Positions 24,521-44,563 of a stretch of 64,000 bases of DNA are shown in pieces. A model generated the notes under the pieces. That model was not told the DNA's origin. It ran no database searches and worked only from the letters and a program-made list of their open reading frames with translations. Source of the DNA: Candidatus Daviesbacteria bacterium. Lineage in GTDB: Bacteria; Patescibacteriota; Microgenomatia; Daviesbacterales; UBA10151. Made by a program: the position numbers and the translations under genes. The stretch is from assembly GCA_016187025.1 (NCBI GenBank), contig JACPKM010000004.1:163637-227636 (forward strand), given 5' to 3'. Positions within the stretch are counted from its first letter, which is position 1; every line of letters starts with the position of its first letter.

Positions 24521-24618
24521 AGTCTAGATAGAATAAAGAGTTTAGCAAGACAAATCTAAAAAAACAAGATTTAACTTAATCTCTAGACAAAATTCTAACA
24601 ATAAGTTTAAAATAGGCC

Positions 24619-25635: not shown

Positions 25636-25638
25636 ATC

Positions 25639-26733
25639 ATGAATAATCAATCACTTACCATTGCAGTACTAGGGTCTCATTCCGCTCTGGATGTTTGCCG
25701 GGGAGCAAAAGATTTAGGATTTAACACCTTAGTTATTTGCGAGAAAGGAAAAGAAAAAACTTATCAGAAGTTTTATAGATCCCAAGATGAGTTAGGTTGT
25801 GTTGACGGAGTGCTAGTTTTAGAAAAATTTGCAGATATATTAAAACCAGCTGTCCAGGAAGAACTAAGAAAAAGAAATTGCATATTTATTCCTCATAGAT
25901 CATTTGAAGTCTATTTAAACTTTGATTACAAAGCAATTGAGGAAAAATTTAAAGTGCCAATTTTTGGAAATAAATTCTTACTAAAAATTGAAGAGCGGGG
26001 AGTGAAACCTAATCAATACGACCTTTTAGAAAAAGCCAAAATAAGGATACCCAAGCAATTTAGCGATCCTAAAAAAATAGATAGATTGTGTATTATCAAA
26101 GTCCTAGAAAAAGAAAGAGGTTTTGAAAGAGCCTTCTTTTTGTGTGACTCTTATAAAGAGTATCAAAAGCAAGTAGAAGAAAAATTAGATAAAGGAATTT
26201 TTACTAAAGAACAATTAGATAAATGTGTAATTGAGGAATTTATGATCGGTGTACAAGTAAACTTAAATTATTTTTTCTCTCCAGTAGATAAAAGATTAGA
26301 GCTTCTAGGGACAGATACCAGAAGGCAAACCAATATTGAAGGATTAATTAAAACACCTGCTCCTTATCAGCAATCAATCATGGAAAAAGTAAATATAAAA
26401 TACGAGGAAGCAGGACATATTGCTGTGACAGTCTTGGAATCAATGCTTGAGCAAATTTTTGAGTTAGGGGAAAGATTTGTTAGAGTTTCTCAAAAGTTAA
26501 TACCACCTGGAGTGATTGGCCCTTTTGCCCTGCAAGCAGTAATTGTTCCAGGCCCTCCCAAAAAAGATATTATTGTTTTTGATGTTTCGCCAAGAATGCC
26601 GGGTAGTCCCGGAACTTTTGCTACACCATATAGTGGGTATTTATTTAGGCAAAATATCTCTGTTGGAAAAAGAGTTGCAATGGAAATTAAGAATGCTTTA
26701 GAAAAGAATAATTTAGAAAAAATTACAACATGA
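25639..26733 (+). CDS. PurP-family ATP-grasp protein, paralog 2
   Basis: AVLGSHSALDVCRGAKDLGF is a paralog of the upstream gene. Confidence 0.6.
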   Translation: MNNQSLTIAVLGSHSALDVCRGAKDLGFNTLVICEKGKEKTYQKFYRSQDELGCVDGVLVLEKFADILKPAVQEELRKRNCIFIPHRSFEVYLNFDYKAIEEKFKVPIFGNKFLLKIEERGVKPNQYDLLEKAKIRIPKQFSDPKKIDRLCIIKVLEKERGFERAFFLCDSYKEYQKQVEEKLDKGIFTKEQLDKCVIEEFMIGVQVNLNYFFSPVDKRLELLGTDTRRQTNIEGLIKTPAPYQQSIMEKVNIKYEEAGHIAVTVLESMLEQIFELGERFVRVSQKLIPPGVIGPFALQAVIVPGPPKKDIIVFDVSPRMPGSPGTFATPYSGYLFRQNISVGKRVAMEIKNALEKNNLEKITT

Positions 26734-28121
26734 ATATGAAAAACCTTTCAACCTACCAATCTCCCTTTTCTTGGCGTTATGGGTCAGATAGCATGCGACA
26801 GATTTGGTCTGAGGAAAATAAATACAGAATATGGAGAAAGGTTTGGGTAACTCTTGCTAAAGCTCAATACACACAAGGCCTGCTGACGAAAAAAGAATTT
26901 GATGATTTGGAAAAACACCAAGACGATATCAATATAAAAAGAATTTTAGAAATAGAACAGAGCACACAGCATGATGTTGTGGCTGCAATTAAAGAGTTTG
27001 CAGAGAAGGCTAAAGTGGGTGGAGGAAAAATACATTTGGGTGCTACCAGTATGGACATTAACGATAACGCGGATGTTCTAAGAGTTCAGGAAGCGTTAAA
27101 GTTAATCGAGGGTCAGCTAAGAAGCCTTGTTAAAAAATTCTTAGAAAAGGGGGGAAAATATTCAGATCTTGCCTGTATGGGTTACACTCATCTTCAACCT
27201 GCTGAACCCACAACTTTAGGATACAGACTTTGTTTTTATATCCAGGATCTACTAACTGATCTAGAGTTTCTAAAGTTTGTTAAAAATAATTTAAAAGGGA
27301 AAGGGATAAAAGGGGCTGTGGGTACATCTGCAAGTTATGTCAAACTTTTAAATAAAATAGGTGTAGAAAAGATGGAAAATGAGGTAATGGATATATTGGG
27401 GATTAGCGCTGTTGAAATATCAAACCAGACGGCTCCCAGAAAAATAGAATATTTGATAGGAAGTCTTCTCGCATCAATCTCACAGACTTTATATAAGTTT
27501 GCGTTTGATCTAAGAATAATGCAATCTCCCGGATTTGGTGAGTGGCAAGAACCTTTTGGAAAAACGCAGGTCGGGTCATCCGCTATGCCTTTTAAGAAAA
27601 ATCCCTGGAAAGCAGAGCAAATTTGCTCGTTATCCAGAGTTGTTGTAAGTTTATCACGGGTTCTTTGGGATAATGCAGCAAACATGGGTTTAGAAAGAAC
27701 TTTGGATGATTCAGCTAACAGAAGAGTAGTTATCCCAGAAATATTTCTAACAACAGATGAGATATTGAATATTGCCAATAATATTTTGGATGGATTAATC
27801 GTAAATGAAAAAAAAGTTACAGAAAACTTAAACAAGTATTGGCCATTTTCTGTAACTGAGGCAATTTTAATAGAGGTCGTTAAAAAAGGAGCAGACAGGC
27901 AAAAGATGCATGAGGTTTTAAAGGGTATTGCCATGAGCGCATGGCAGGAAATATCGAATGGGGAAGAGAATCCTATGAAAGATCTTTTGGAAAATGATCC
28001 GGATCTAAGTAAATATTTATCATCAGAAGAGTTAGATCAGCTATTTGATGTAAAATCACACTTGGGAAATGCCCCGGAAAAAACCAAAAGATTTTGCAAA
28101 AGAGTCAAAAAATATGTTTAG
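26730..28121 (+). CDS. purB: Adenylosuccinate lyase
   Basis: Fumarate-lyase signature GATSMDINDNADVLR...SSAMPFKKNP. Confidence 0.85.
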   Translation: MNMKNLSTYQSPFSWRYGSDSMRQIWSEENKYRIWRKVWVTLAKAQYTQGLLTKKEFDDLEKHQDDINIKRILEIEQSTQHDVVAAIKEFAEKAKVGGGKIHLGATSMDINDNADVLRVQEALKLIEGQLRSLVKKFLEKGGKYSDLACMGYTHLQPAEPTTLGYRLCFYIQDLLTDLEFLKFVKNNLKGKGIKGAVGTSASYVKLLNKIGVEKMENEVMDILGISAVEISNQTAPRKIEYLIGSLLASISQTLYKFAFDLRIMQSPGFGEWQEPFGKTQVGSSAMPFKKNPWKAEQICSLSRVVVSLSRVLWDNAANMGLERTLDDSANRRVVIPEIFLTTDEILNIANNILDGLIVNEKKVTENLNKYWPFSVTEAILIEVVKKGADRQKMHEVLKGIAMSAWQEISNGEENPMKDLLENDPDLSKYLSSEELDQLFDVKSHLGNAPEKTKRFCKRVKKYV

Positions 28122-28473
28122 ATTATGGGGGAAAGTTAAAAGAGGTCAAAGCAGGGGAAAGAAGTTGGGGTTTCCAACTGCAAACATTAATTTACATAAT
28201 AAAATGGCCCAGGGGGTGTATGTGTCTAAGATAAAGATTAAATCCCAGTTTTTTACTGCCCTAACATTTATCGGCAATGCTACTACATTTAATGAGGAAA
28301 ATTATTTAGCAGAAAGTTATATTTTGAATTTTGATAAAGATATATACGGCGAGTTTATAAGCGTTTATTTATTGAAAAAGATTAGGGGTAATATTAAGTT
28401 TAAAACGGCAAATGATTTGATTAAACAGATGAAAAAAGATGAAAAGCAGGCATTAGAATACTTTAAACAATAA
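28114..28473 (+). CDS. Monofunctional riboflavin kinase (RibF kinase domain only)
   Basis: GRG..LGFPTANI-type motif (RGQSRGKKLGFPTANI). I favour the internal Met at 28114, overlapping the purB end, over the listed start at 28069. Confidence 0.6.
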   Translation: MFRLWGKVKRGQSRGKKLGFPTANINLHNKMAQGVYVSKIKIKSQFFTALTFIGNATTFNEENYLAESYILNFDKDIYGEFISVYLLKKIRGNIKFKTANDLIKQMKKDEKQALEYFKQ

Positions 28474-28476
28474 GTT

Positions 28477-29070
28477 ATGTTTAGCGGAATCATAGAGAAA
28501 AAAACTAAAGCAATAGAGCTGAATAAAAACAAAAACAGCATAATATTAACTTTTGCTAGGCCTAAAAAATGGAGGCTTTCAGAAGGGGAGAGTATATGTA
28601 TAGATGGTATTTGCTCAACAGTGAGTAAGATCACCTCAGATACTTTTTCTGTTTATTATATGAGTGAGACACTGAGTAAAACTCATTTAATATTTGTTGA
28701 CGGTAGTCATGAATTTAATTTGGAACAGAGCTTAAGGTTAACTAGTTTAGTGGGCGGGCATCTTGTTTCCGGTCATATAGATACTGTAGGTAAGGTTGTG
28801 AATATTAGTAAAAAGGAAGACTCATCTGTTGTAAAGATTGAAATTCCTCCAGAGTTTTCAAGATACATTATTTATAAAGGATCTATCTGTGTAAATGGTG
28901 TTAGTTTAACTGTAGTTAATATAGACAAAAACGTATTTACGGTTTCACTGATTCCTTATACATTAGCTAAAACTAATTTAGGATCTCTTAAAGTAGAGGA
29001 TTTAGTGAATATTGAAGTTGATTTACTAGCAAAATACCTGGAGAAATTAACTAAAACTGAGAAAAGATGA
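28477..29070 (+). CDS. ribE: Riboflavin synthase alpha chain
   Basis: MFSGIIE...GESICIDGICSTV and the repeated lumazine-binding half GSICVNGVSLTV. Confidence 0.8.
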   Translation: MFSGIIEKKTKAIELNKNKNSIILTFARPKKWRLSEGESICIDGICSTVSKITSDTFSVYYMSETLSKTHLIFVDGSHEFNLEQSLRLTSLVGGHLVSGHIDTVGKVVNISKKEDSSVVKIEIPPEFSRYIIYKGSICVNGVSLTVVNIDKNVFTVSLIPYTLAKTNLGSLKVEDLVNIEVDLLAKYLEKLTKTEKR

Positions 29071-30194
29071 AAAACAAAATTGGAATTGTAGGTGGTGGGC
29101 AACTGGGAAAAATGTTAACCCTTGAGGCTAAAAGATTAGGTTTTACAGTAGTGATCCTTGATCCAACTAGAAAAAGTCCTGCAGCTCAGGTATCAGATTA
29201 TCAACTAGTGGCAGATTTTAAAAATGAAAAAGCTATTAAACGGTTGGCTGAGCTTACAGATTACATAACTTTTGAAATAGAGCTTGCTAATGCAGATATT
29301 TTAAATGAAATTTCTAAACTAGGAGCAAAGGTTAATCCATCTGCAAAAACGTTAAATATTATTAAAGATAGGCTGAAACAAAAAGAGTTTCTTGTAAAAA
29401 ATAATATTCCAGTAGCGCCTTTTAGAAATGTCAACAACAGAGAAAATATTTTAGAATCAGCCAAAAAACTGGGATATCCGATTTTATTAAAGGCCCGGCT
29501 GGATGCATATGATGGTAGAGGAAATGTATTAATAAAAGACGAAAAAGAAATTGATGATGCTTTAGAAAAGTTGGTGGATAGAGAACTTTTCTTAGAAGGG
29601 TTTGTTTCATTTAAGAAAGAGCTTGCTGTGATGATTGCAAGAAGCTCAAAAGGTGAAATAGCTGTGTATCCAGTAGTGGAAACAGTTCACAAAAATAGTA
29701 TTTGTCATACGGTTTTTGCACCAGCTCCTGTTGATACTGCTATACAAAAAAAAGCAAAAAATCTAGCAATAAAGGTTATAAAGGTTTTAAAGGGTGCAGG
29801 GGTCTTTGGAATTGAAATGTTTTTGACTAAAGATAATAAAGTATTGGTAAATGAAATAGCTCCAAGAGTCCATAATTCAGGTCATTACTCAATTGAGGCT
29901 TGTTTAACTTCTCAATTTGAACAACATATACGGGCAATAACAGGACTACCTTTAGGAAGAACTGACATGGTTGTTTCTGCTGCTGTAATGATAAATATTT
30001 TAGGTGAAAGACATGGGCAATCAGAATTAAAGGGTTTAGAAAAAGCCTTAAAGCTGCCTAATGTTTCTGTACATATATATGGCAAGACTGAGACAAGGAT
30101 AGAAAGAAAAATGGGTCATATTACTGCTATTGATTCCTCTTTAAAGAAAGCGTATAACAAGGCATTAATAGCAAGAAAACTGATTTCAATTTAA
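29067..30194 (+). CDS. purK: N5-carboxyaminoimidazole ribonucleotide synthase
   Basis: [22 protein letters not shown] and an ATP-grasp body. Confidence 0.85.
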
Positions 30195-30718
30195 TGAAGA
30201 GCGCGAATCCTTTAGTTGGCATTATTATGGGATCTGATTCAGATTTGTCAGTTATGTCTGAGGCAGCCAAGATACTGGATGAGTTTAATATTCCTTATGA
30301 GCTGATGATAGTATCTGCACACCGTACTCCAGATAGGATGTATACATTCGCAAAGCAAGCACAAAGCAGAGGAGTGAAGGTAATCATTGCAGGAGCAGGT
30401 GGCTCTGCACATCTGCCTGGAATGACAGCTTCGCTTACTTCACTTCCTGTAATTGGTGTTCCTATTCAAACAAAAACACTTTCTGGCATAGATTCGCTTT
30501 ATTCTATTGTACAAATGCCTCCTGGAGTTCCTGTTGCTACTGTTGGAATAAATGCTGCTTTAAATGCCGGGCTTTTGTCAGTAAAAATTTTGGCAATATA
30601 TGATGAAAAGCTATTAAAAAAGCTTGAAGAATACTCAAAATCCTCAGAAAGCTCGGTTGTTGCAAAATCCTCTAAACTAGAAAAAATTGGTTTTGAAAAA
30701 TATTTAAAAGCAAAATAA
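30194..30718 (+). CDS. purE: N5-CAIR mutase
   Basis: [14 protein letters not shown]...SAHRTPDRM...[10 protein letters not shown]. Confidence 0.9.
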
Positions 30719-31701
30719 TGGTTCAAGCAAAAATAATTCTTTCTGCTTTGCCGAAAGTATTAAAAGAAGTTGATATTCCAGGTTTGGGAAAAAAGTATCA
30801 AGGTAAAGTAAGAGATTATTATATTCTCAACTCAGAACGAATAATTATTACTACAGACCGGCAATCTGCCTTTGATGTGATATTGGGATGCATTCCATTT
30901 AAAGGTGCAGTATTAAACCAGCTTGCTGCTTTCTGGTTTAATAAAACAAAAAAAATTATCCCAAATCATTTAATTTCCGTTCCGGATCCGAATGTTTCTC
31001 TTGTTAAAAGCTGCACTGGAATTCCGATAGAAATGATAGTTAGGGGATATATTTCTGGTGTGACAAATACCTCAATTTGGGGCTCATACCAGAAAGGAGA
31101 GAGGATGATTTACGGGGTTAAGTTTCCCGATGGCTTAAGAAAGAATCAAAAGTTAAGAGACCCTGTTATTACTCCGACAACTCATGGGGGTGGTAAAAAT
31201 GGACATGACGAAAGATTAACCAGAAAAGAAATTTTAGAAAGGAAGCTTATCTCACCTAAACTCTACAAGCAAATGGAGGAAACAAGCCTCGAGCTTTTTA
31301 AGTTTGGGTCAAAACTGTGTGCAAAGCAGGGACTTATTTTAGTTGATACGAAATACGAGTTTGGACTGGATGAAAACAGCAACCTGATGTTGATGGATGA
31401 AATGCACACTCCAGATTCCTCAAGGTTTTGGATAGAGAAAACTTACAAGGATAGATTTGCAAAAGGTATAGAACCGGAAAACTTTGATAAAGAGTTTTTA
31501 CGGCTTTGGTATGCCCAAAGGGGATATAAAGGAGATGGCAATCCTCCCAAAATGAGCAAAGACTTAATTGTGGCCTTGGCTGAAAGATATATAGCAGTTT
31601 ATGCAAAGTTAACAGATAAAAAGTTTAAACTTTTTAAATATCCTATTGAAAAAAGAATAGAAAAAAACCTTCGTCCCATTATTAAGACCTATAGTAAATG
31701 A
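30718..31701 (+). CDS. purC: SAICAR synthetase (long form)
   Basis: GKVRDYY...TDRQSAFD and the downstream PurC core; 327 aa. Confidence 0.85.
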   Translation: MVQAKIILSALPKVLKEVDIPGLGKKYQGKVRDYYILNSERIIITTDRQSAFDVILGCIPFKGAVLNQLAAFWFNKTKKIIPNHLISVPDPNVSLVKSCTGIPIEMIVRGYISGVTNTSIWGSYQKGERMIYGVKFPDGLRKNQKLRDPVITPTTHGGGKNGHDERLTRKEILERKLISPKLYKQMEETSLELFKFGSKLCAKQGLILVDTKYEFGLDENSNLMLMDEMHTPDSSRFWIEKTYKDRFAKGIEPENFDKEFLRLWYAQRGYKGDGNPPKMSKDLIVALAERYIAVYAKLTDKKFKLFKYPIEKRIEKNLRPIIKTYSK

Positions 31702-32286: not shown

Positions 32287-33081
32287 ATGACAAACTTTCA
32301 ATTGTTTATTCTAAACAAAAGACAAAAAATCATCATAGCATCTGCTATCTTAACCCTTGGTTTGCTTTCTACCCAGTTGGTTGATTTTAATCTGCGATTT
32401 AAGTTTATGGCAGGGCTTGGTGTAGCTGCCTATCTTCTATCACTATGGGCTTTGTGGGAGGGAATTAATAAAACTAAAGCCATGACTTTGATGATTTTAC
32501 CGGTCTTTTTTACCTTAGCTGTTGCAAGCTTTTATTTTCTGCTTCCTATCAGATGGTTAACCAGGCTACCAGTAGCTTTATTCTTTGGATTTATGTTTTA
32601 TTTGCTACTACTTGCTCAAAATGTATTTAACGTTGCCTCAATTAGAACCATACCTTTATATAGAGCTGCCTCAACGGCAGCTTTTCTTTTTACTCTTTTA
32701 TCTGCATTCTTCTTATATAACGTTATATATGCTTTTAATATGATGTTTTTAATTAATGGTTTAGCAGTGTTTTTACTGAGTTTTCCGCTTATTTTGCAGG
32801 TATTGTGGTCTTTGGAGATGGAAGAAAAGATTTCAGCTTCGATAACCATTCAAAGCTTTATATTAAGTCTAATCTTGGCAGAGTTAGCAGTTGTATTATC
32901 ATTTTGGCCTTTGGTGACAACAATATGGTCATTAACTCTGTCATCGGCAATGTATGTATTGTTAGGCTTGGCAACTCATATGTTAAGAGCAAGAATCAGT
33001 AGGAGAGCGGTGGGAGAGTACCTGATAATAGGGGCCCTAGTTTTAGTATTTGCCTTTTTTACTACTTCCTGGTCTGGTTAA
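32287..33081 (+). CDS. Hypothetical polytopic membrane protein
   Basis: At least 7 hydrophobic helices and no recognisable motif. Confidence 0.4.
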   Translation: MTNFQLFILNKRQKIIIASAILTLGLLSTQLVDFNLRFKFMAGLGVAAYLLSLWALWEGINKTKAMTLMILPVFFTLAVASFYFLLPIRWLTRLPVALFFGFMFYLLLLAQNVFNVASIRTIPLYRAASTAAFLFTLLSAFFLYNVIYAFNMMFLINGLAVFLLSFPLILQVLWSLEMEEKISASITIQSFILSLILAELAVVLSFWPLVTTIWSLTLSSAMYVLLGLATHMLRARISRRAVGEYLIIGALVLVFAFFTTSWSG

Positions 33082-33888
33082 TGAACTACCCCGCAGCAGA
33101 GCTGCGAGGTATCGCAAGCGAAAGTTCTTGTTACCAAGTTGTAACCGCGCAGTAAACTGCTCGGTATTATGTAACAATAAATACTTTTTTAGCTTCAAAG
33201 AAAAAATTTACAAACAATCTAACGATAGAGGAGTAGGGTGTGAAAATTCAGTAAGAATATCGTGAAAATAAAATACTATGAGACTTTCGCGTACCAAGAA
33301 ACTTTTTACTCCTGTGTGGATAACTTATTGCTTAAAAATTTGCACTAGATTGATATAGTTGCTAATTGCAGGCCCCGCTCCCCGGAGGAGAGGGCTAATA
33401 ATACTTCCTAATTTACACTAACCTAAAAGGAAAGAAGCTTGTAAGCTTTGTTATTTTGGTCTTTTCCTGAAATATACTCCTTTCTGCTAGGCCACCCAGA
33501 CTTACCTATATATTAACGTCGTACAATGTATCTTATACGACGTTCAGAAAGGATTTGCCAGAGGAGAGGTTATGTGGTTAAGCTAAGAGTTACTAATGCA
33601 AAATTTAAAATTTTTAACATGTATTTTTAATGCCTAATTTTAGCTGCAATTCTTCCATTTTTTTACTGATGATTTTTTTACAATGTCCGCTTTTTTACTA
33701 AATATCTTAGTTTTTACTTTGGCGCTCTATAGAGCGCTAAACTTGGATGATGGTAGATACTGCTAGTCCCCTAATCAACCGTTTTTGAGGCCTTTACGGG
33801 CTTCGTGCCTGAGAGGTCTCTTGATGTCGGACAATATTAACCATCTATTGACAAACTACTATTAAAAGTGTCAATCTGAAGTCAAGCT
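33082..33888. other. Unusually long (~800 bp) gene-free interval rich in palindromes/hairpins
   Basis: No ORF has coding character. It contains the perfect 16-bp palindrome gcgctctatagagcgc (33722..33737), a 9-bp-stem hairpin aacgtcgta...tacgacgtt (33515..33544), aagcttgtaagctt, cgcagc-aga-gctgcg, and TTGACA...tgtcaa just before the ATG at 33889. Confidence 0.4.
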
Positions 33889-36735
33889 ATGTTTGACAAT
33901 CTAAGAGATAGTTTTTCAAAGAAAAACCTAATTAATCTATTGCTTCTTGGTATTTTAGTTCTGGCTGTTCCCCTATCTGTGGATCTGGTAAGACGCCAAC
34001 AGGTATTTAAGTCATTTGCACTGGGTGAATCAATAGAGCTTTTGTCCAATAAGTGCGTAAAAACAAGAGATGGAAAGCAAGTAGTTGTTTGCCCGGAGAT
34101 ATCCTTTAAGATTACTCCTCCCAGGGAATTTTTAGCAAGCAATAATTCCCTAAGTAAAAGTTTAGCCTTAAATCAAAGTATTCTTGGCACGGTTTATGCT
34201 GGCCATCCGGAAGGGACAGAAGGATGGTATTGTGCAGATAATCAGATTTGGCATGATAAAGCTGATGGAAACCATGAGTTCTGGGAAGATTGTGGGTCAG
34301 ACAAGGAGTGTGTTAGTATTTCTCCTCCACCTGGTTATTCTCAAGACGCAGAGTGTCGAATAAGGCAACAAGAACCAGAGCAGCAAGAATCTCAGCCACG
34401 AGAGCCTCAATGTGAATGGAGAGATTTACGAAACGAATGCACAGCCTGTAATGAGGCAAGAAAAATAGAAAAAAAAGTTTGTGATGGAAATGACACCGGA
34501 GAAACAAGAATTGCCCAAGAAGGTGTAAGCGATTCTGGATGTAGTAGCTGGTGTTCAAATCAACCAGAGCAAGAGCAGCAGCCAAGTGGAGGTACAGGTC
34601 CGCAGTGGTGTTCTGGGTATGTGCAAGACTGCTGGGAAGATGTAAATGGAGATGGTATTGAGGAAAGAGGTACTCAATGGTGCTCTGGAGGGGTAAATGA
34701 GGGAGGAAACTGCGCTTGGGATCCTCAAGTCACTACTTGTGGTGTTTGCGAAATAATAGACACTTCCTCTGGACAGACCTACTCACCAGGAGGCCAGTCA
34801 CAGCAGCAATGTAACGGTGATGTAACTGTTGATACTCTCGCTCCGACAGGAGTGGATTATTTAGTTAGCGAAAAAATCGTTACTAATGAAAAAGATGGTA
34901 CAAGATATAAGGCCTACACTACAGAAGACAAACGAAATAATAAAACTTGTGGTTATGAATATTTCCAATATATTTCCACTCTGAGCGATGGCAAATACTG
35001 TGCAAATTACGTTTTTGGCCCGTGGGATAATCAGCAGGTTTGTAAAGATGTTGCTGTTCCTCCGGCTCCAGATTCATCAGGTTGTACCACTGGTTCTGCA
35101 GGATCTATTACCCAACAACAGGCAGAGTGTGTAATTGGAAAAAGAAGTGATTTACTTTCATTTTTTAGAAATAATGGTTGGTGTACTGATAAGAAAGAAA
35201 ATTATCAGGGAATAGTTAATAACTGGATGGGTATAAATACCCAGAATGATAAAGATCAAGTTGCAAGCTGCCTAGGGTCAACACCATCTTCTTGCACAAC
35301 AGGGTCTGCAGGAACAGTTACTCTAGAACAGGCAAAATGTGTGTTAGGCAAAAGAAGTGATATTTTAACTTTTTACAGATCTAATAGTTGGTGTACTGAT
35401 AAAGAGGACAACTACCCAGGAATTATAAACAACTGGATGGGTATTAACAACCAAAATGATAAAAATCAGGTTGCAAGCTGCTTTAGTCAACCCTCATCTA
35501 CTTGTTCCATCAAGTTACAAAGGAGCGGTACTTCCGGTTGGAGCCAAGCACTTACTGTAAAAGTGAACGATCGAGTTAAAATAGCTGCTTTAAACTCATT
35601 AGATCAAGCTATCCCGGGCGTAAATCTTAGTGTTTCCGGTCCAAATAATTTCTCAAGAAGCTTGTCAAATCAGCAAGAATTGACGCTTTCTACGCAAGGG
35701 ACATATAGTATAACTGCCAGAGGTGGTAGTTGTGACAGCGCCAGTGCTGCAACGCTGACTGTTTCTCCTTCAGACCAGTCAGATACTCAAATTGAGTTTA
35801 GAATTGCAGAAGAAAGAGCGGATTTAAGCAAGCAAAACTTTATTAAAATTCCTGCTGGCCGACAACATGAAGTGATAAACCATACTTTAGCCAACACAAC
35901 TCCTGGTAAAAAGTTTATGTGGGTAGAGTTTAAAAAAGGCGACCAGTTTTCCTCCCCTATCTCTGCCGAAATAGAATATGTTGGACCTGCGCCTCAAATT
36001 GACACTTTGTCATGTAATCTAGATATAGCTGGTAAGGGTTTGGTGTTTGAAATAGAGGGTAATAACTTTAGTGCAAATCAAGGTCGTTTAACTGCAAATA
36101 ATACACAAGTTACAATTACTGAATGGATTCATAATAAGATTAAAGGTAATATAGAAAATCCTTCCTTCTCCCCTACTGCCGGGCAATCTTATCAAGTAGT
36201 TGTTACTAGAAACGATGGTGAGAGTTTCCAGCAAAACTGTCTAATTGGTATTTCGCAAATTATTCTTGGAGTAAAACCTGTTTGTGTAGCCCCCAACAGA
36301 AACATTGCCAATGTGGAAGTAGCCATTAAAGAGGCAAGTGCAAGTGGAAATGCAGTACGGGAAACAGTTGAAATAGATAAAGAGGGAGTTATTAAAAACT
36401 TAAAGACTAAACTACAAGGCCCAACCGATGGAAAGCCCGGTAAAAGATATAAAATATCTGTAAAAGCTCCTCAATACCTAAGACGTCATGGTTTATTTAC
36501 TGCAGCTAGCGGTACAACAGTTCTACCTGGCCTTAGTTTACCATGGGGGGATATCTGTCCTACCAGCGGAGATGGTATTATAAATAGTATAGATAAGTCT
36601 TGTCTCAACCAACAATGGGGTAAGGTTGCTTCGACAGCCAAGGTTTGCGACTGTAATGGCGATGGAGTTTGCAATGCTTTTGAATGGGGTTATATGAAAC
36701 TTAATTTTAACGATGTAAATGATGCTGAATTATAA
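33889..36735 (+). CDS. Large (948 aa) secreted/anchored Cys-rich protein with internal tandem repeats and C-terminal dockerin-like module
   Basis: N-terminal signal anchor LINLLLLGILVLAVPL. It is cysteine-rich, with paired QWCSG motifs. The C-terminus PTSGDGIINSIDKSCL...DCNGDGVCNAFEWGYM resembles the duplicated Ca-binding loop plus helix of type-I dockerins. Confidence 0.55.
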   Translation: MFDNLRDSFSKKNLINLLLLGILVLAVPLSVDLVRRQQVFKSFALGESIELLSNKCVKTRDGKQVVVCPEISFKITPPREFLASNNSLSKSLALNQSILGTVYAGHPEGTEGWYCADNQIWHDKADGNHEFWEDCGSDKECVSISPPPGYSQDAECRIRQQEPEQQESQPREPQCEWRDLRNECTACNEARKIEKKVCDGNDTGETRIAQEGVSDSGCSSWCSNQPEQEQQPSGGTGPQWCSGYVQDCWEDVNGDGIEERGTQWCSGGVNEGGNCAWDPQVTTCGVCEIIDTSSGQTYSPGGQSQQQCNGDVTVDTLAPTGVDYLVSEKIVTNEKDGTRYKAYTTEDKRNNKTCGYEYFQYISTLSDGKYCANYVFGPWDNQQVCKDVAVPPAPDSSGCTTGSAGSITQQQAECVIGKRSDLLSFFRNNGWCTDKKENYQGIVNNWMGINTQNDKDQVASCLGSTPSSCTTGSAGTVTLEQAKCVLGKRSDILTFYRSNSWCTDKEDNYPGIINNWMGINNQNDKNQVASCFSQPSSTCSIKLQRSGTSGWSQALTVKVNDRVKIAALNSLDQAIPGVNLSVSGPNNFSRSLSNQQELTLSTQGTYSITARGGSCDSASAATLTVSPSDQSDTQIEFRIAEERADLSKQNFIKIPAGRQHEVINHTLANTTPGKKFMWVEFKKGDQFSSPISAEIEYVGPAPQIDTLSCNLDIAGKGLVFEIEGNNFSANQGRLTANNTQVTITEWIHNKIKGNIENPSFSPTAGQSYQVVVTRNDGESFQQNCLIGISQIILGVKPVCVAPNRNIANVEVAIKEASASGNAVRETVEIDKEGVIKNLKTKLQGPTDGKPGKRYKISVKAPQYLRRHGLFTAASGTTVLPGLSLPWGDICPTSGDGIINSIDKSCLNQQWGKVASTAKVCDCNGDGVCNAFEWGYMKLNFNDVNDAEL
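35083..35481 (+). repeat. Intragenic tandem duplication (2 copies, ~189 bp each, period ~210 bp) encoding a ~63-aa Cys module
   Basis: Copy 1 (35083..35271) and copy 2 (35293..35481) both begin tg(t/c)ac.ac.gg.tctgcagga and end gttgcaagctgc. Protein repeat: C-TTGSAG-x-T-xxQA-x-C-V-x-GKRSD-x-L-xF-x-R-xN-xWCTDK-xx-NY-xGI-xNNWMGIN-xQNDK-xQVASC. Confidence 0.8.
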
Positions 36736-36825
36736 CGTAAACGTTACAAGAAGTTTACGATGTAATCTAAACGATTATAACGTAAACGTTACAAGAAGTT
36801 TACGATGTAATCTAAACGATTATAA
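36736..36825. repeat. Perfect 45-bp x2 intergenic tandem direct repeat
   Basis: cgtaaacgttacaagaagtttacgatgtaatctaaacgattataa occurs twice back-to-back, at 36736..36780 and 36781..36825. The unit end ttataa is also present at 36730..36735. Each unit holds a 7-bp inverted repeat cgtaaac/gtttacg. Confidence 0.9.
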
Positions 36826-36827
36826 CT

Positions 36828-37463
36828 ATGGATAGTCCTGCCAACAACCAATTAGTAAACAACACATATTTTGAGGGGTCAAAATCTAGATTCAGACTGT
36901 TTAGAATAAAGTTATGGCCTTTTGGGGTATATGCAGTATTGGGACTGGTTCTTCTGGTTGAAATTGTATTAGGTATACAACAGTTAATTAAACCTCCCCC
37001 CTCACTACAGCCCTCGCAGCCTATTTCAGGTGGTAAGATTGCCCTTGTATCCTCTGCAAAAGAATATAAGCTGGGAGATGAGGTAACAGTTTCTGTTAAA
37101 GTATCTACCTCAGGTAATCCGACATATGGGGTAGATTTAGTTGTTATTTACGATCCCAAGGTCCTTGAAGCAACCTCCAGTTCTTTTTTTGAAAAGGGCA
37201 CAATTTATTCAGAATACCCTTTAGCAAGCTTGGATACACAAAATGGAGTTATTAAGGTTTCAGGTATTGCTTCAGGCAATCAAAAAGGTTTTAATGGAAG
37301 TGGGACCCTTGCAAGTTTAAAGTTTAAGGCCAAATCAGCAGGCAATACAACACTGAAGGTAGATTATAAAAAAGATGCGACAAATGAAAGTAATATAATT
37401 GAATCAACTGAGGCCAAAGATATCTTAGACAAGACTTATGACCTGAAATTAACCGTTAAATGA
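36828..37463 (+). CDS. Membrane-anchored cohesin-like domain protein
   Basis: N-terminal TM anchor. The following ~140-aa beta-rich domain (KLGDEVTVSVKVSTSG...VDLVVIYDPKVLEA...GSGTLASLKFKAKSAGNTTLKVDY) matches the cohesin type-I pattern (V.V.V.....G..LAxIxFKAK.AG...L). Confidence 0.5.
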   Translation: MDSPANNQLVNNTYFEGSKSRFRLFRIKLWPFGVYAVLGLVLLVEIVLGIQQLIKPPPSLQPSQPISGGKIALVSSAKEYKLGDEVTVSVKVSTSGNPTYGVDLVVIYDPKVLEATSSSFFEKGTIYSEYPLASLDTQNGVIKVSGIASGNQKGFNGSGTLASLKFKAKSAGNTTLKVDYKKDATNESNIIESTEAKDILDKTYDLKLTVK

Positions 37464-38191
37464 CTATGAAAAAAATCATTTCCATTTTCATCTTAACTTC
37501 TGTCTTTTTAATTTTACCGCTACCTGTTTTTGCAGCTACTCTTTCTTTGTCCCCTTCCACCGGTAATTTTAACAAAGGCTGTGATGTTACAGTTGATATA
37601 AACTTAAACACAGAAGGAGTGCAAACAGATGGGACAGATGCAATTGTTTTATATGACTCTTCACGCTTAACCGCTAATCAGATTGTTTCCGGCCAAATCT
37701 ATTCAGATTATCCTGGAAATAATATCGATGAGCAGTCGGGCAAGATAACTATTTCAGGTTTATCATCTGTAAGCAGTGCCTTTTCCGGTAGTGGCACTTT
37801 TGCAAAAATTAACTTTACTGTTAAAGATAATGCTTCGGTAGGGGTAACGCAAGTAAAATTTGATTTTGACTCAAATGATAAATCCAAAACTACAGATTCT
37901 AATGTGGTTGAAAGAGGTACTGTAGCAGATGTATTAAGCTCAGTAGTAAATGGAAATTATACTATTGGTTCCGGTGCCTGCACTGTTCAAGGAAGCCCTC
38001 CGACTATTGTAGTTACCCCTCCTGTTTCTCAAGGCGGGATCTCTACTCCATCAGGAGCAGTAAAAACTCCTGTCAAAACAATAGATGATATGGTGGGTGG
38101 TAAAACCGGCTCTCAGGAATTTAGTTATATGCTGGCAATACTTGGGGTAACAATGGCAGTACTGGGAGTGTTAGGGTTTGCTCTTCTTTAA
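37460..38191 (+). CDS. Secreted cohesin-like domain protein with C-terminal TM anchor
   Basis: Signal peptide ends ...LPVFA-ATL. Cohesin-like core LSLSPSTG...CDVTVDINL...DAIVLYDSSRL...GSGTFAKINFTVKDNASVGVTQVKFDF. C-terminal hydrophobic helix MLAILGVTMAVLGVLGFALL. ATGA overlap with the upstream gene. Confidence 0.5.
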   Translation: MTMKKIISIFILTSVFLILPLPVFAATLSLSPSTGNFNKGCDVTVDINLNTEGVQTDGTDAIVLYDSSRLTANQIVSGQIYSDYPGNNIDEQSGKITISGLSSVSSAFSGSGTFAKINFTVKDNASVGVTQVKFDFDSNDKSKTTDSNVVERGTVADVLSSVVNGNYTIGSGACTVQGSPPTIVVTPPVSQGGISTPSGAVKTPVKTIDDMVGGKTGSQEFSYMLAILGVTMAVLGVLGFALL

Positions 38192-38199
38192 AACAATGT

Positions 38200-39147
38200 A
38201 TGATTCTGTCGGCATTAATTACAGATTTTTTAGAGTATTTGGAGTTGGAAAGAAATACTTCACAATTAACAATTAAAAACTACGACCACTATTTAAAGCG
38301 GTTCCTGGATTTTGCCCATTCGACAAGCTCAGGGCAGGCCGGAGACATTGATCCAAAAGAGATAGATCTTAATCTAATCAGAAAATATAGGTTGTATCTG
38401 TCCCATTATGTAGACCCTAAAACGGGTAAAGGTTTAAAAAGGGTTACGCAAAATTATTTTATGATAGCCTTAAGGGCTTTTTTAAGGTATTTGGCAAAAA
38501 ATGATATCGCTACCCTTTCGCCTGAAAAAGTAGAGTTAGGTGAGAGAGAGCCTCGGCCGTTCAAGGTTTTGGAAGAAGGTCATCTAAAGCAACTGCTGGA
38601 TGCACCGGACACCACAAAAAAAGAAGGAATTAGAGACAGAGCGCTTCTTGAAACTCTTTTTTCTACAGGACTGCGGGTTTCAGAGCTTGCCTCTTTAGAC
38701 TGTAATCAAATTAATCTAAACAGAGGTGAATTTGGAGTGGTGGGAAAAGGTGGAAAAGAGCGGGTGGTGTTTTTGTCTGATGCAGCTTCTTTTTGGCTTG
38801 CTAAATATTTAGAAAACCGTAAAGATACCTTTAAGCCGCTATTTATCAGATATCAGGGTAAGGTTATCACTGACAATTCTGGTGAAGCAATGAGGCTGTC
38901 AGCAAGATCTATTGAAAGAATAGTTGAAAAATATGTTAAAAGGTTAGGTTTGCCGATAAAAGCTACTCCTCATACACTAAGACATTCGTTTGCCACAGAT
39001 TTGCTAATAAATGGAGCAGATATTAGATCAGTTCAAGAGATGCTGGGGCATTCTAATATTTCCACCACCCAGATCTACACCCATGTCACCAACAAGCATT
39101 TAAAGGATGTTCATAAAGCTTTCCACAGCGGGAATAAGGAAGAATAG
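38200..39147 (+). CDS. Tyrosine site-specific recombinase (XerC/XerD family)
   Basis: R...HTLRHSFATDLL...LGHSNISTTQIYTHV with catalytic Tyr; 315 aa. Confidence 0.85.
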   Translation: MILSALITDFLEYLELERNTSQLTIKNYDHYLKRFLDFAHSTSSGQAGDIDPKEIDLNLIRKYRLYLSHYVDPKTGKGLKRVTQNYFMIALRAFLRYLAKNDIATLSPEKVELGEREPRPFKVLEEGHLKQLLDAPDTTKKEGIRDRALLETLFSTGLRVSELASLDCNQINLNRGEFGVVGKGGKERVVFLSDAASFWLAKYLENRKDTFKPLFIRYQGKVITDNSGEAMRLSARSIERIVEKYVKRLGLPIKATPHTLRHSFATDLLINGADIRSVQEMLGHSNISTTQIYTHVTNKHLKDVHKAFHSGNKEE

Positions 39148-40985: not shown

Positions 40986-43315
40986 GTAGCTCAGGATTAA
41001 CTACTATTCAAGCGCAACAACTTATAATTCAATATGGCTTAAATAAGTTACCTGAAAAAAAAGGGTCAACTGTAATTCAGCTTATCTTTTCCCAAATTAA
41101 AAACTATCTTTTCTTACTTTTACTAATAGCCTCCATTATATCTTTTGTTGTCGGGGATCCTCTTGATGGGGTATTAATATTGGGGATATTACTACTTAAT
41201 ACCATCTTGGGTTTTTGGCAGGAATATAAAGCATCTAAAGAGTTAGAAGCTTTGCGAAAGCTTGAGGTGCTAAACTCCCGGGTAATAAGGGATGGTCAGG
41301 AAATTGAGATTTCCTCGTTTAAACTGGTCCCAGGTGATCTGGTTATTTTAGAATCTGGGGATAAAATTCCGGCAGATGGAAAAGTTTTGGAGTCTGTGTC
41401 TCTTGCTGTTAACGAATCCTCTTTAACCGGTGAATCTTTGCCTGTAATGAAAACAGAAAAGGAGGGAGAAAATGATCTCTATTTTGGTACGATCGTCTCT
41501 TCAGGCAGGGGTAAGTTCCAGGTTACATATACCGGTGTTAACACAAAATTTGGAAAGATTGCTCTGACCTTGGCTGATGTGGAAGAAGAGGTTACACCTT
41601 TGGAAAAGTCTTTAAACAGTTTAGGTAAAAAGATCGGTCTAGGAGCCTTAGTTGTTTCTATAGCCCTTTTTGTGTTTGGGGTATTGCAGGGTAATTCGCT
41701 AATAGATGAGTTTTTTAATTCAACCGCGCTGCTGGTTGCTGCTGTTCCGGAGGGCTTACCGGCAGTTGTGACGATAGTCCTGGCTTTGGGGGTGCACAAG
41801 ATGTACAAGAGGAAAGCTCTTGTTAGAAAGATGGTGGCGGTTGAGAGTTTGGGAGCGGCAACAGTTATCTGCTCTGATAAAACAGGAACCTTAACTCAAA
41901 ACCAGATGGTAGTAAAAGAGGTTAAAACCCATCAGGTTAATGAAAAAGAGCTAATAAAGTGTGCGGTTTTGTGTAATAGCTCCAGTTTGGTAGTCAAAGA
42001 AAATCATGGAGGATTTGATATCTTAGGCGATACCACAGAAGGCGCACTCCTTTTATGGGTTAAAGAAAAAGGGGTCGATTATGAACTTTTAAGGTCCAAA
42101 GGTGAGCTGGTTGATGAGAATCCATTTAATCTAAAATCCAGGATGATGAGTGTTGTTTGGAGAGACATGGGCAAGGATGTAACTTATGTTAAAGGAGCTC
42201 CTGAATCGATTTTACCAAAGACAGATTTGTCAGAAGAGCAGATTGAAAAAGTGGAGCAAGATTATAAGAGGATGGCGAGTAAGGGTTTACGGGTGTTGGC
42301 TTTTGCGTCCGGGAAAGAAGGCTCACCTCTTAATTTTTTGGGGATAATCGGTATTGCTGATACGCCCCGGATTGAGGCAAAGGTTGTTATAGAACGTGCC
42401 CGTCAGGCAGGGATTAAGGTGATAATGGTTACAGGGGATAACGAGCTAACAGCCAAAGCAATAGCAGAAGAGATTGGTTTGATTAGGGAGGGTGAGGAGG
42501 TGATAACCGGTGCACAGCTTGATGAATTAACAGATGAGGAGTTTGTGATGCGCCTTAGTAAGATACGGATCTTTGCCAGGATCCAACCAGAGCAAAAGCT
42601 TAGGATTGTGCGAGTTTATCAATCCTCAGGTGAGGTGGTGGCTGTAACCGGCGATGGGGTTAACGATTCTCTAGCTTTAAAACAGGCGCATGTTGGGGTG
42701 GCTATGGGTCAAACAGGCACAGATGTTGCCAAGGAGGCCTCTGATATAGTATTGCTGGATGATAACTTCTCTACCCTAATCTCTGCAATAGAGCAGGGCC
42801 GGCTAATCTACAGTAATATTTTGAAGGTTGTTAAATTTTTACTGGCCGGTAATCTTTCTGAAATTTTATTAATTATTGGGGCAAGTATTTTATCTTTACC
42901 CACCCCCCTTTTCCCTGCCCAAATCTTATGGATTAATTTTGTAACTGACGGATTTCCGGCTTTGGCTTTAGGGACAGATAATGCTTCTGCAAATCTGATG
43001 AAAACCCCACCAAGGAAAAAGTGGTCAGTTTTGCTTAGTAACAGCACTCTTTTGTACATTTTTATTGGGGGGCTGGTAATGGCAGCAATCTCTTTAATAG
43101 GTTTTTATATAAGCTTACAGCTTTTTGGAGTGCAAACTGCCCGCTCCTCTGCATTTACATTGGTGGTGATCTCACAAATGTTTTTTGTGTTTATCTTAAG
43201 AAAACACCATTCACTTCTTTCTAACAAAAAACTAGTTCTTTCAGTAGGATTTGTGCTTTTGATGCAAGCACTAATACTAACTTTTGAGCCTCTAAAAACA
43301 CTATTTAAAGTTTAA
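40982..43315 (+). CDS. P-type cation-transporting ATPase (type IIA, Ca2+-ATPase-like)
   Basis: PAD, ICSDKTGTLTQN, TGDN, VTGDGVNDSLALKQA motifs, with 10 TM helices. Confidence 0.85.
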   Translation: MSSSGLTTIQAQQLIIQYGLNKLPEKKGSTVIQLIFSQIKNYLFLLLLIASIISFVVGDPLDGVLILGILLLNTILGFWQEYKASKELEALRKLEVLNSRVIRDGQEIEISSFKLVPGDLVILESGDKIPADGKVLESVSLAVNESSLTGESLPVMKTEKEGENDLYFGTIVSSGRGKFQVTYTGVNTKFGKIALTLADVEEEVTPLEKSLNSLGKKIGLGALVVSIALFVFGVLQGNSLIDEFFNSTALLVAAVPEGLPAVVTIVLALGVHKMYKRKALVRKMVAVESLGAATVICSDKTGTLTQNQMVVKEVKTHQVNEKELIKCAVLCNSSSLVVKENHGGFDILGDTTEGALLLWVKEKGVDYELLRSKGELVDENPFNLKSRMMSVVWRDMGKDVTYVKGAPESILPKTDLSEEQIEKVEQDYKRMASKGLRVLAFASGKEGSPLNFLGIIGIADTPRIEAKVVIERARQAGIKVIMVTGDNELTAKAIAEEIGLIREGEEVITGAQLDELTDEEFVMRLSKIRIFARIQPEQKLRIVRVYQSSGEVVAVTGDGVNDSLALKQAHVGVAMGQTGTDVAKEASDIVLLDDNFSTLISAIEQGRLIYSNILKVVKFLLAGNLSEILLIIGASILSLPTPLFPAQILWINFVTDGFPALALGTDNASANLMKTPPRKKWSVLLSNSTLLYIFIGGLVMAAISLIGFYISLQLFGVQTARSSAFTLVVISQMFFVFILRKHHSLLSNKKLVLSVGFVLLMQALILTFEPLKTLFKV

Positions 43316-43854
43316 TGGTCTGGTGATGTTTCCCGTTGTGAGTTCAGAACGAAAAGATTTATATTGGAAATGACCCTTCCGTCCGGTGTTATTAAGGCGG
43401 GATTTGAGTCTGCTGTTCTGTCTACTGGACTTCTTGAAGTTTCAACCCATTCAACTGTTGTTAAGCCTGTGGGGAATGCGCGTATTGTTAAACTTGGCAA
43501 GTCGTTAATTACCCGGTGAGCAGGGTCAACATGCAGAATTTGTCTAAGGAGTGAGTAGACAGGTTGACGATTAAATTTATCTATCAGTGGACTTCTTCTC
43601 CTTCTTTCATCATATAGAATCAGATCCAAAGAGGCAGCAGGACGCTCTCTTTTAGCTACAATAGCAAGAGCAAGAGATGTAAGATGGGCAGCAATCAAGA
43701 TTTGGGTAAGCGCTGAGCAGGAAAACGCATTTCTTCCTTGCAATGCTCCAATTGAGCCAGGGTCTGAAAAAAGCATTAAACCAGCTTTCCTTGCTGATTG
43801 AAATAATTGAGAGGTTAACTGTTCTACTCCAACTTCTTGTTCACAAAGCGGCAT
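43312..43854 (-). CDS. Hypothetical protein (elevated GC)
   Basis: 180-aa ORF with no motif I can place. Converges on the ATPase with a 4-nt overlap. Confidence 0.35.
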   Translation of the reverse strand: MPLCEQEVGVEQLTSQLFQSARKAGLMLFSDPGSIGALQGRNAFSCSALTQILIAAHLTSLALAIVAKRERPAASLDLILYDERRRRSPLIDKFNRQPVYSLLRQILHVDPAHRVINDLPSLTIRAFPTGLTTVEWVETSRSPVDRTADSNPALITPDGRVISNINLFVLNSQRETSPDH

Positions 43855-43883
43855 GACTTATGAATTATATCATCTAGTGGGTT

Positions 43884-44276
43884 TTAAATTTGCTCTATAG
43901 GTTTTGCCAGTGAGGCGAAATTTTCTTCAATCATTTGGTTTTTATTCCACCATATTTTTTCTCTCTCTGACACCCACGGCCCTTCATATAAAATTACTTT
44001 TCCATACCAACCCTGACATTCTTCAATATTTTCAGCTCTTTTGATAATATATTCTCCCCTTTTGTTATCAAATATATTTTGTCCTGAAGGATAAAGACAG
44101 TAGAGATGTCCGCTTGCATTTTGTGCTCTATCTCCTGAATGCCAAAGCACAGTTCCCAGTCTTGCTCTTAGTACTGGTGAGTCATTGATTTTTGCAGTTT
44201 TTTCAGTAAAGCTTGTGACTACCAAAAAATACCACAAGTTAAAAAAAATATATGTAATAAGAATTAGTTTAAACAT
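43884..44276 (-). CDS. Hypothetical N-terminally anchored protein
   Basis: N-terminal TM helix followed by a Trp-rich soluble domain. Confidence 0.35.
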   Translation of the reverse strand: MFKLILITYIFFNLWYFLVVTSFTEKTAKINDSPVLRARLGTVLWHSGDRAQNASGHLYCLYPSGQNIFDNKRGEYIIKRAENIEECQGWYGKVILYEGPWVSEREKIWWNKNQMIEENFASLAKPIEQI

Positions 44277-44350
44277 AAAAACTACAGGATTATATCAGAA
44301 ATTATATCTGAAGTATAATAAATTTTAGGTAAAAAATGGGTAAGAATAGA

Positions 44351-44563
44351 TTAAAGGGTTTTTCCTGCCAGCCCGTAAACTAAAAAGTCCTGAAAAAATC
44401 CAGGTGCCTGTAAAGGCCAGCTGATAATTACCATATAATAGCCAGGTGAAAGAAAAGATAAAGGCGGCCAGCGGTAATAAAGAGCAAAGAGCAAAGCGAA
44501 AAAGAATCCAACCATAAAATAGGCAATTGCCAGCTTGCTTATTAACGGCTGAAATCTAATCAT
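44351..44563 (-). CDS. Small membrane protein co-transcribed downstream of gyrA
   Basis: 70 aa with two TM helices and a 4-nt overlap with the gyrA start. Confidence 0.3.

Follow-up and report, generated by a model that had tools for sequence, protein, structure and literature searches.

A tandem repeat between two genes was investigated in a 64,000-nt stretch of DNA from Candidatus Daviesbacteria (hereafter the window). The upstream gene encodes a dockerin-like protein of 948 aa, and the downstream gene encodes a cohesin-domain protein. The best explanation of the array was that a degenerate copy of a small, non-coding dispersed element had been duplicated locally in tandem; it was given a probability of about 0.8. 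A special regulatory explanation is then unneeded, because the gap is exactly filled for the reason that the gap is the insertion. An earlier note on this DNA, made from the sequence alone, had considered the repeat to be a phase-variation device of the cohesin locus. This was not supported, since the unit is a dispersed element present at seven unrelated sites and is absent from the corresponding spacers of the orthologous loci L005–L009.

Tandem array and dispersed element family

Tandem Repeats Finder located the array at 36729–36826 with a period of 45, 2.2 copies, 100% matches, 0 indels, and a score of 196, which confirmed the perfect 45-bp × 2 tandem repeat reported before. The array was composed of the following parts.

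36729–36773, + strand: tandem copy 1, with the hexamer ATTATA at 36729–36734 (TATAAT on the minus strand) and a 39-nt core at 36735–36773
36774–36818, + strand: tandem copy 2, identical to copy 1, with the hexamer at 36774–36779 and the core at 36780–36818
36819–36826, + strand: terminal ATTATAAC, a partial third copy; the ATTATA closes every family member
36736–36759 (copy 1) and 36781–36804 (copy 2), + strand: dyad cgtaaac-N10-gtttacg, part of a mutually exclusive set of hairpins
36767–36768 (copy 1) and 36812/36813 (copy 2), + strand: private 1-nt deletion, canonical aatcGtaaacg being aatc-taaacg in the window

The spacer between the two genes (36736–36827, 92 nt) was entirely repeat apart from its final T, and the array stopped 1 nt short of the ATG at 36828. 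The claim of the earlier note that the gap is exactly filled thus held for the spacer, but the array itself starts inside the upstream open reading frame (ORF). The final two codons of that ORF, the stop included (tta TAA, stop at 36733–36735), come from the first 7 nt of the array and lie in copy 1. The partial third copy was present, with a length of 8 nt rather than 6. The AC after the terminal ATTATA matches the start of the core by chance, which gives 8-nt direct repeats flanking each unit. The dyad described previously was found in each unit and extends to an imperfect 14-bp inverted repeat (ATTATAACGTAAAC/GTTTACGATGTAAT). Its 24-nt core occurred in the window at these two places only, with up to three mismatches allowed, and 0 occurrences were expected in shuffles. 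No further copies were detected by nhmmer with two profiles in the window or in 20.7 kb of probably the same metagenome-assembled genome.

The unit was found outside the window by an exact search for the 24-nt CGTAAACGTTACAAGAAGTTTACG, which returned two contigs of species-representative genomes and seven metagenome contigs of the Joint Genome Institute. A 52-nt block, ATTATAACGTAAACGTTACAAGAAGTTTACGATGTAATCGTAAACGATTATA, was 51–52/52 identical in each contig, and both flanks were unrelated. On the gene-facing strand, the canonical element reads TATAAT-CGTTTACGATTACATCGTAAACTTCTTGTAACGTTTACGT-TATAAT (52 nt). One unit comprises 46 nt, a 40-nt two-hairpin core and one TATAAT, and always adjoins a second TATAAT-like hexamer. 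Seven distinct sites other than the window were obtained on Daviesbacteria-type contigs from several groundwater projects. One species-representative contig, recorded as Levyibacteriota, came from Northern California groundwater, and one further copy came from a Rifle aquifer data set. The named homologues of two flanking proteins were almost all from Candidatus Daviesbacteria. A profile search with nhmmer gave one site per locus. The family totalled eight sites, the window among them, plus one variant, with unrelated flanks, and is thus dispersed and multi-copy as are miniature inverted-repeat transposable elements (MITEs). Copy 1 of the window matched the dispersed family at 98%, and nhmmer gave E = 1e-15.

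Both window copies lack a G of the canonical sequence, and the period is reduced from 46 to 45. The deletion breaks the canonical perfect 9-bp stem GTTTACGAT/ATCGTAAAC. Because this private deletion is carried by both copies, the duplication was local and started from a decayed copy. The recent duplication proposed in the earlier note was supported by this result.

The array was also added later than the genes around it. The orthologous loci keep the order of large protein, cohesin, cohesin, and Xer recombinase, and their first spacers (20, 21, or 44 nt) contained neither the repeat nor a similar dyad. The C-terminus of the 948-aa protein, MKLNFNDVNDAEL followed by the stop (DAEL), is colinear with that of L005, MREFFNQEDEPEL followed by the stop (EPEL), with equal length and the final EL in common. 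The position of the stop codon is therefore ancestral and precedes the array. Excising both units from the window leaves ...gaa tta taA CT ATG gat, with an intact stop, a 2-nt spacer, and the cohesin start. In the window, the end of the dockerin-like gene, with its last codon and stop codon (gaA TTA TAa), reads TATAAT on the minus strand and provides the hexamer.

A history of three steps is proposed. The element would have inserted at this minus-strand TATAAT, when the two genes were probably only 2 nt apart (TAA-ct-ATG). The inserted copy would then have lost one G, and the mutated unit would have duplicated head-to-tail to give the 92-nt spacer. Slippage between the 8-nt direct repeats at its ends (ATTATAAC) may have caused the duplication, or the element may have re-inserted beside its own terminal hexamer. 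Such an insertion history would account for three features: the gap is filled exactly, the array overlaps the stop codon, and the copies are perfectly identical.

The junction between the units was verified on Logan contigs (k = 31). Proteins identical to the 948-aa and 211-aa products were encoded on contigs from four other sequencing runs, and all these contigs stop or start within the repeat. The downstream contigs (SRR12113383 and SRR12113385) start at exactly the predicted base, with agtttacgatgtaatctaaacgattataac+t, the first 31-mer following a branching 30-mer that must have two successors. Because this 30-mer holds the locus-specific deletion, the unit-to-unit junction must exist in the reads. 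The upstream contig L004 (SRR12113422) ends at the predicted base 36758, with the last 31-mer holding the unique base 36728, and the upstream contig L003 (SRR12113430) ends 2 nt before the predicted base. The contigs prove the junction, and the copy number at the window locus is thus at least two. An assembly artefact was considered, in which the assembler looped once through a collapsed repeat or misjoined two contigs. The repeated stretch (53 nt) is near common assembler k-mer sizes, and the exact copy number is not verifiable from contigs. However, the downstream break after the branching 30-mer was found in two independent samples, and two more samples break upstream, one at the predicted base and one close to it, so that an artefact is extremely improbable. 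For assembly and annotation, the result is a warning that contigs break at the element in small-k graphs.

Other origins of the element were tried and rejected. A known RNA family was rejected, as no Rfam match was obtained at gathering thresholds in the whole window, and the only match at E ≤ 1 over 33000–37000 was a chance match to a long non-coding RNA outside the repeat. No tRNA or transfer-messenger RNA was found in the window. A phage or plasmid origin was rejected because phage and plasmid collections gave no blastn match; viral contigs gave no exact or degenerate pattern match. The full text of the literature gave no match to four substrings of the element of 15–16 nt.

Two further observations were made on the contigs that carry the element. 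L011 (CAZYPW010000002.1) is labelled 'uncultured Gammaproteobacteria', has 36% G+C, and carries a Daviesbacteria-type element; it is probably mis-binned or mislabelled. L020, a contig of nearly equal length in another assembly, encodes a CofE-like protein with 80% identity to the one in L013, for which the named relatives are Daviesbacteria. Another family of small repeats, with inverted ends TGTCATCCTGAGG...CCTCAGAATGACA and a length of about 88 nt in L020, was found in promoter-type intergenic regions of Daviesbacteria-type contigs (L020 9908–9995; L017 near 3539; L016 6051 and 6071; L021 1–32). Only its terminal 11-mer is common to the loci. Some of what distinguishes L017 from L026 upstream of PBP1A is due to this family.

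Insertion sites, promoters, and alternative explanations

The position of the element relative to genes was determined. At 7/7 distinct non-window sites, the TATAAT end lay 6–13 nt before a start, as follows.

DUF4143 ATPase (AAA_14; L010 2197–3333): TATAAT to start 6 nt
Mur ligase: TATAAT to start 7 nt
CofE-like protein: TATAAT to start 6 nt
465-aa protein: TATAAT to start 6 nt
PBP1A: TATAAT to start 8 nt
Hypothetical protein at two orthologous loci: TATAAT to start 13 nt
tRNA-Ile(TAT): TATAAT 9 nt before the mature 5' end

No obvious GGAGG-type Shine-Dalgarno sequence was present in these gaps between element and start. In the window genome, TATAAT-like boxes ended 5–9 nt before the start codon at about 10/57 ORFs, a roughly 2.3-fold excess over other offsets, and Shine-Dalgarno-like motifs were rare in the window. 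Since the window boxes show similar offsets, the geometry of the element is the native promoter geometry of leaderless or nearly leaderless genes. The sequence pattern suggests that, in this Daviesbacteria genome, many transcripts have no leader or almost none. A single literature search on promoters or leaderless genes in candidate-phyla bacteria gave nothing specific. Start-proximal TATAAT-like boxes in the window were seen at the genes at 428, 4443, 14052, 43854 (minus), and 53054 (minus). A DUF4143/AAA_14 ATPase gene is also present in the window (61156–62526, minus), followed by about 1.5 kb without a long ORF.

The window copy is exceptional. There, the consensus −10 ends are turned toward the 3' end of the 948-aa gene, and no start codon is nearby. 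The sense-strand hexamer TATAAC lies 1 nt from the cohesin ATG and is too close to serve the cohesin gene. No + strand sigma-70-type promoter was found in or near the array in a scan of 36300–37100, a range that leaves an 807-nt ORF-free region upstream of the 948-aa gene outside the scan. The only promoter-like call in this range was on the minus strand and outside the array. The earlier suggestion that copy-number change would alter the spacing to an upstream promoter therefore found no correctly placed + strand promoter for the cohesin ATG.

The occupancy of sites was compared between related genomes. At the PBP1A locus, L017 and L026 carry the canonical element as gatctggTATAAT-core-TATAATctaaaaatATGGCTATGG, i.e., ctggTATAAT-core-TATAATctaaaaatATG. 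The empty orthologues L027 (86% identity; aaacctgaTATAATttcctaatATGGCTATGG/cctgaTATAATttcctaatATG) and L028/L029 (84%; atacctgaTATAATtaaaggaATG/cctgaTATAATtaaaggaATG) lack the core and show a single native, extended −10 box. The empty state has one TATAAT and the filled state two, which fits a 6-bp duplication at this site, one of the two empty sites. The other is provided by a variant member in L026, TATAAT-CGCTCTGCGATTACATCGCGACGCTTCTTATAACGCGTTGCGT-TATTAT, which is a clean 49-nt insertion relative to L017. The empty site in L017 reads tttagaT/CATTAT/acagctc, and the PBP1A protein of L017 is 100% identical to that of L026. At this site the hexamers TATAAT and TATTAT differ and the empty site has CATTAT, which fits an element-borne hexamer beside a native one; the distal hexamer of the variant is TATAAT regardless of the target. 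These sequences suggest that one TATAAT arrives with the element, which is placed next to a TATAAT-like hexamer and does not duplicate its target. At the CofE-like locus, orthologues at 80% and 75% identity were without the element, and an orthologue at 84% retained only a diverged 3' (promoter-proximal) half with 22/27 matches (0/2000 shuffles as good). From these three comparisons, related genomes differ in occupancy, and in some old copies only the promoter part escapes decay.

A filled orthologous site was found in L012/L025 (2259–2334) and L018 (7101–7176). The element was 51/52 identical, and the flanks were 89% identical over 909 nt. The only substitution in the element, T to G, disrupts one base pair of the 9-bp stem. 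The near-identity reflects either constraint on the element or recent homogenisation.

This conservation is one of the results in favor of a cis-regulatory cassette, that is, a conserved promoter/operator module bound by a dedicated regulator, with the window holding two operators for the cohesin genes or an antisense RNA. The element was conserved at the L012/L018 site while the flanks diverged, and the promoter-proximal half was conserved in L019. It contains two similar palindromes, TAACG-TAAA-CGTTA and TAATCG-TAAA-CGATTA, with centers 31 bp apart and each overlapping a −10 box, and it is always located on −10 boxes directly upstream of genes. The other strand is promoter-like (TTTACG-N17-TATAAx); in L013, where it scores 10/12, the element and one flanking T form TTTACG-N17-TATAAT facing a divergent gene. 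Several downstream genes belong to the cell envelope (Mur ligase, PBP1A, PMT_2 glycosyltransferase, and cohesin). However, 52/52 identity including the non-palindromic spacers is not expected of operator selection, and in close orthologues the −10 boxes are plain and the element is missing. A tRNA, an AAA ATPase, and a CofE-like protein are also among the downstream genes; a coherent regulon was rejected because the genes downstream are functionally mixed. In the window, the orientation is reversed, with the consensus −10 toward the end of a gene, and the copies bear the hairpin-breaking deletion. A regulatory cassette was therefore considered unlikely.

Tandem copies were also found elsewhere. 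Over the 3463 nt that lead up to the element at PBP1A, L016 and L017 are 100% identical. Past the element, L017 and L026 enter unique sequence, whereas L016 enters ...TTGTAACGTTTACGT-TATAAT, the preceding unit, with a period of 46, at the contig end. The PBP1A locus thus has one copy in L017 and L026 and at least two in L016. The junction in L016 arose independently of that in the window, because L016 keeps the G absent from the window. In L015, there was a faint remnant of what may be a decayed second unit (19/23 matches; 8/1000 shuffles as good). A tandem intergenic array of a dispersed 40–100-bp unit was thus present in the window (2.2 copies) and in L016, and the other sites were single.

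The PBP1A locus, with one copy against a tandem junction on otherwise identical flanks, is in line with a phase-variable switch, in which gain or loss of 45 bp by slipped-strand mispairing would alter promoter spacing or read-through and toggle the cohesin genes. The perfect head-to-tail copies are flanked by 8-nt direct repeats, and the downstream genes encode surface proteins. Copy-number change by slippage is thus plausible, as the earlier note had supposed, but none was seen at the window locus, where the k = 31 contigs show the junction only. The scanned range had no + strand promoter, and the repeat follows the stop of one gene and precedes the next ATG rather than lying between promoter elements or in frame. 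The unit is generic, being also present at housekeeping genes and a tRNA, and relatives run the same operon with a 20–44-nt spacer. Classical contingency loci have many copies of 1–7-nt units, and two copies of a 45-bp unit are unlike such tracts. A switch of this kind is very unlikely.

The folding of the element was predicted. The canonical element on the gene-facing strand gave two hairpins with −14.8 kcal/mol (z = −4.2). Hairpin 1 is the perfect 9-bp stem GTTTACGAT-TAC-ATCGTAAAC, and hairpin 2 is an 8-bp stem including the −10 box. Similar hairpins were predicted in single-stranded DNA. The minus strand of the window unit had a predicted −8.5 kcal/mol (z = −1.5). In five distinct family members, 93% of cells were paired against 21–53% in slid registers, and four pairs change on both sides; the test is modest, with few sequences and a structure derived from one of them. 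The sequences provide modest evidence that variant members preserve the hairpins through compensatory changes.

The hairpins could also act in the RNA as a terminator, an attenuator, or a REP-like (repetitive extragenic palindromic) 3'-end stabilizer decoupling dockerin-like from cohesin expression. The + strand RNA of the whole array was predicted to fold at −26.3 kcal/mol (z −3.9). On the gene-facing strand of the canonical element, which is opposite to the sense strand of the window, hairpin 1 is followed by TTCTTGT and was called terminator-like in a scan. At four other sites, the element lies 11–43 nt after an upstream co-directional gene. However, the terminator-like strand is antisense in the window. 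The sense strand gave 0 terminator sites in 36300–37100, where the A+T-rich stems are followed by GATTATAA and no T-run follows any stem. The attenuator hairpins suggested earlier thus found no terminator-like site on the sense strand. The deletion weakens the main hairpin, and no Rfam match was obtained even at E ≤ 1. An RNA-level role is accordingly quite unlikely.

Several points weigh against duplication of a decayed dispersed element. The family is known from only eight sites and one variant, and the exact 24-mer search misses diverged members. The near-perfect identity across sites could also reflect strong selection or gene conversion. Neither an enzyme nor an autonomous partner was found, with a transposase in 0/57 window ORFs. 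Pfam assigned these ORFs to housekeeping functions and one syntenic Xer recombinase only, with no mobile-element gene. The element was retained at the orthologous sites of L012/L018, and its 3' half was conserved in L019, so that some copies are constrained as promoters. The copy number at the window locus rests on contigs that stop at the repeat (at least two) and not on reads. The 2-nt ancestral spacer is reconstructed, and the nearest relatives are at most 51% identical, so that none serves as an empty-site control.

In a wider proposal, the 46-nt element would be mobile and active in Daviesbacteria and in related bacteria of the candidate phyla. It would insert strand-specifically beside the −10 TATAAT of leaderless genes and rebuild the host promoter with its own TATAAT. 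It would also form self-targeted arrays, and the window array would lie at an off-target TATAAT. Movement may be single-strand and hairpin-guided, as in IS200/IS605. Each insertion would make a new target at its own end, and the resulting arrays would behave as variable-number repeats. This proposal is tentative and was given about one chance in four by us. If true, the element would be among the smallest promoter-seeking mobile elements known and a natural strain-typing marker in uncultured bacteria.

For the duplicated dispersed element in the window, the effect on expression would be neutral or mildly disruptive rather than that of a designed switch. Any translational coupling between the dockerin-like and cohesin genes would disappear. 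The polycistronic RNA would gain A+T-rich hairpins just before an ATG that lacks a ribosome-binding site, and two −10 boxes would be directed antisense.

There are hardly any descriptions of small dispersed repeats from candidate-phyla (Patescibacteria) genomes, which are tiny and usually thought poor in mobile DNA. The element is a handle on the promoter organization of these uncultured organisms and on a possible unrecognised transposition system harbored by them. Its empty and filled sites and its tandem copy number are strain-level markers for tracking metagenome populations.

Neighboring genes and other features of the window

The genes around the array were annotated as follows.

33889–36735, + strand: upstream gene for a secreted or repeat protein of 948 aa whose C-terminus is weakly dockerin-like, stop TAA at 36733–36735
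36828–37463, + strand: cohesin-domain gene 1, 211 aa, with an N-terminal membrane helix (Pfam 6e-11; NCBI HYW42_04265, Candidatus Daviesbacteria)
37460–38191, + strand: cohesin-domain gene 2, 243 aa (Pfam 4e-9)
38200–39147, + strand: XerC/D-type tyrosine recombinase, syntenic with the cohesin pair in repeat-free relatives

The cohesin assignment of the earlier note was solid, but the dockerin call for the 948-aa protein was weak (Pfam E = 0.005; 17.5 bits, under the 22.9-bit cut-off). The closest non-identical homologues of the 211-aa cohesin in the protein database were at most 51% identical. The Xer recombinase is probably unrelated to the repeat. It was ruled out as the partner of the element because the cohesin-cohesin-Xer order is kept in relatives without the repeat.

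The 948-aa gene contains a 210-nt tandem repeat at 35095–35481 (1.8 copies, 77% identity), which encodes a duplicated cysteine-containing module (CTTGSAG..QQ.A.CV.GKRSD..). Directly 5' of this gene, 807 nt (33082–33888) are without an ORF of at least 100 aa, which is unusually long for this compact genome. This stretch has several G+C-rich hairpins, e.g., at about 33090–33160, 33370–33400, and 33515–33545. It contains no tRNA, and its sole Rfam match is a chance match at E ≤ 1.

A 12.5-kb minus-strand block at about 43300–55800 has a reversed GC skew, with gene-strand switches at about 43.3 kb and 55.8 kb. Its genes include gyrA, alr, ddl, two Mur ligases, Ham1, a nucleotidyl transferase, gyrB, and a DNA polymerase III delta'-like gene. 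The block could be a local inversion or a replication landmark. At 24619–26733, two adjacent paralogous DUF1246/DUF1297 genes lie in a near-complete purine biosynthesis cluster (14052–31701). We take these genes to be archaeal-type PurP, and the pair in a purine cluster is notable for a candidate-phyla bacterium.

Comparison with known repeat systems

The element was compared with known small repeats. In genomic behavior it comes nearest to mycobacterial minisatellites (MIRUs, see below), promoter-bearing repeats such as REP2 of Neisseria, and Correia elements, and in the manner of insertion it is similar to ends-only derivatives of IS200/IS605. The terminal inverted repeats of MITEs were absent, and the ends are direct repeats (ATTATA...ATTATA). 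The left terminus of the core, CGTAAACGTTAC, matched the reverse-complemented right end, CGTTTACGATTAC, at about 9/12 positions, because CGTwwwACG is nearly palindromic.

The palindrome-associated transposable elements (PATEs) that consist only of IS200/IS605 ends have no terminal inverted repeats, a hairpin near each end, and a fixed orientation beside a short sequence (PMC7290912). Like PATEs and REP sequences mobilized by REP-associated tyrosine transposases (RAYTs), the element has a fixed orientation at all sites, is inserted directly 3' of ATTATA (+ strand), and has two predicted hairpins. As to target duplication, the variant site favors none, as in PATEs, with only two empty sites available. 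Besides this PATE-like insertion, the element itself ends in the target sequence ATTATA. Unlike in these systems, the surroundings of the copies and the window yielded no Y1/HUH transposase or RAYT. With a hexamer, the target exceeds the known tetra- and pentanucleotides in length, and the element is far shorter than PATEs, which have about 270 nt (PMC7290912).

In Neisseria, REP2 has two internal stem-loops, lies directly upstream of genes, and carries promoter hexamers, and the ends of Correia elements create −10-like boxes firing outward (PMC3184786). The element is similar in being dispersed, with two stem-loops and promoter hexamers immediately upstream of genes. However, Correia elements have 100–150 bp, long terminal inverted repeats, and a TA duplication, whereas the element has 46–52 nt. 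It also has no ribosome-binding site or ATG, and the −10 hexamer itself is apparently the landing site.

Perfect tandem copies beside surface-protein genes, where slippage could alter spacing, resemble a contingency locus; the difference is that the unit has 45 bp, is present in two copies, and is derived from a dispersed element.

MIRUs (mycobacterial interspersed repetitive units) occur as dispersed 40–100-bp units in the spacers of polycistronic operons, often in tandem, with copy numbers that can differ between strains (PMC3184786). The ends of MIRUs overlap the flanking stop and start codons, and insertion is suggested by empty and filled sites; similarly, the window array overlaps a stop and ends 1 nt before an ATG. 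However, MIRUs are G+C-rich, with tetranucleotide direct repeats and small in-frame ORFs, whereas the element is A+T-rich and TATAAT-bounded. It is normally located in promoters and not in operons, with about one to two copies per site so far. From the base composition, homology to mycobacterial MIRUs is very unlikely. The element is best read as a new family within the small dispersed intergenic repeats of the MITE/MIRU/REP-like type.

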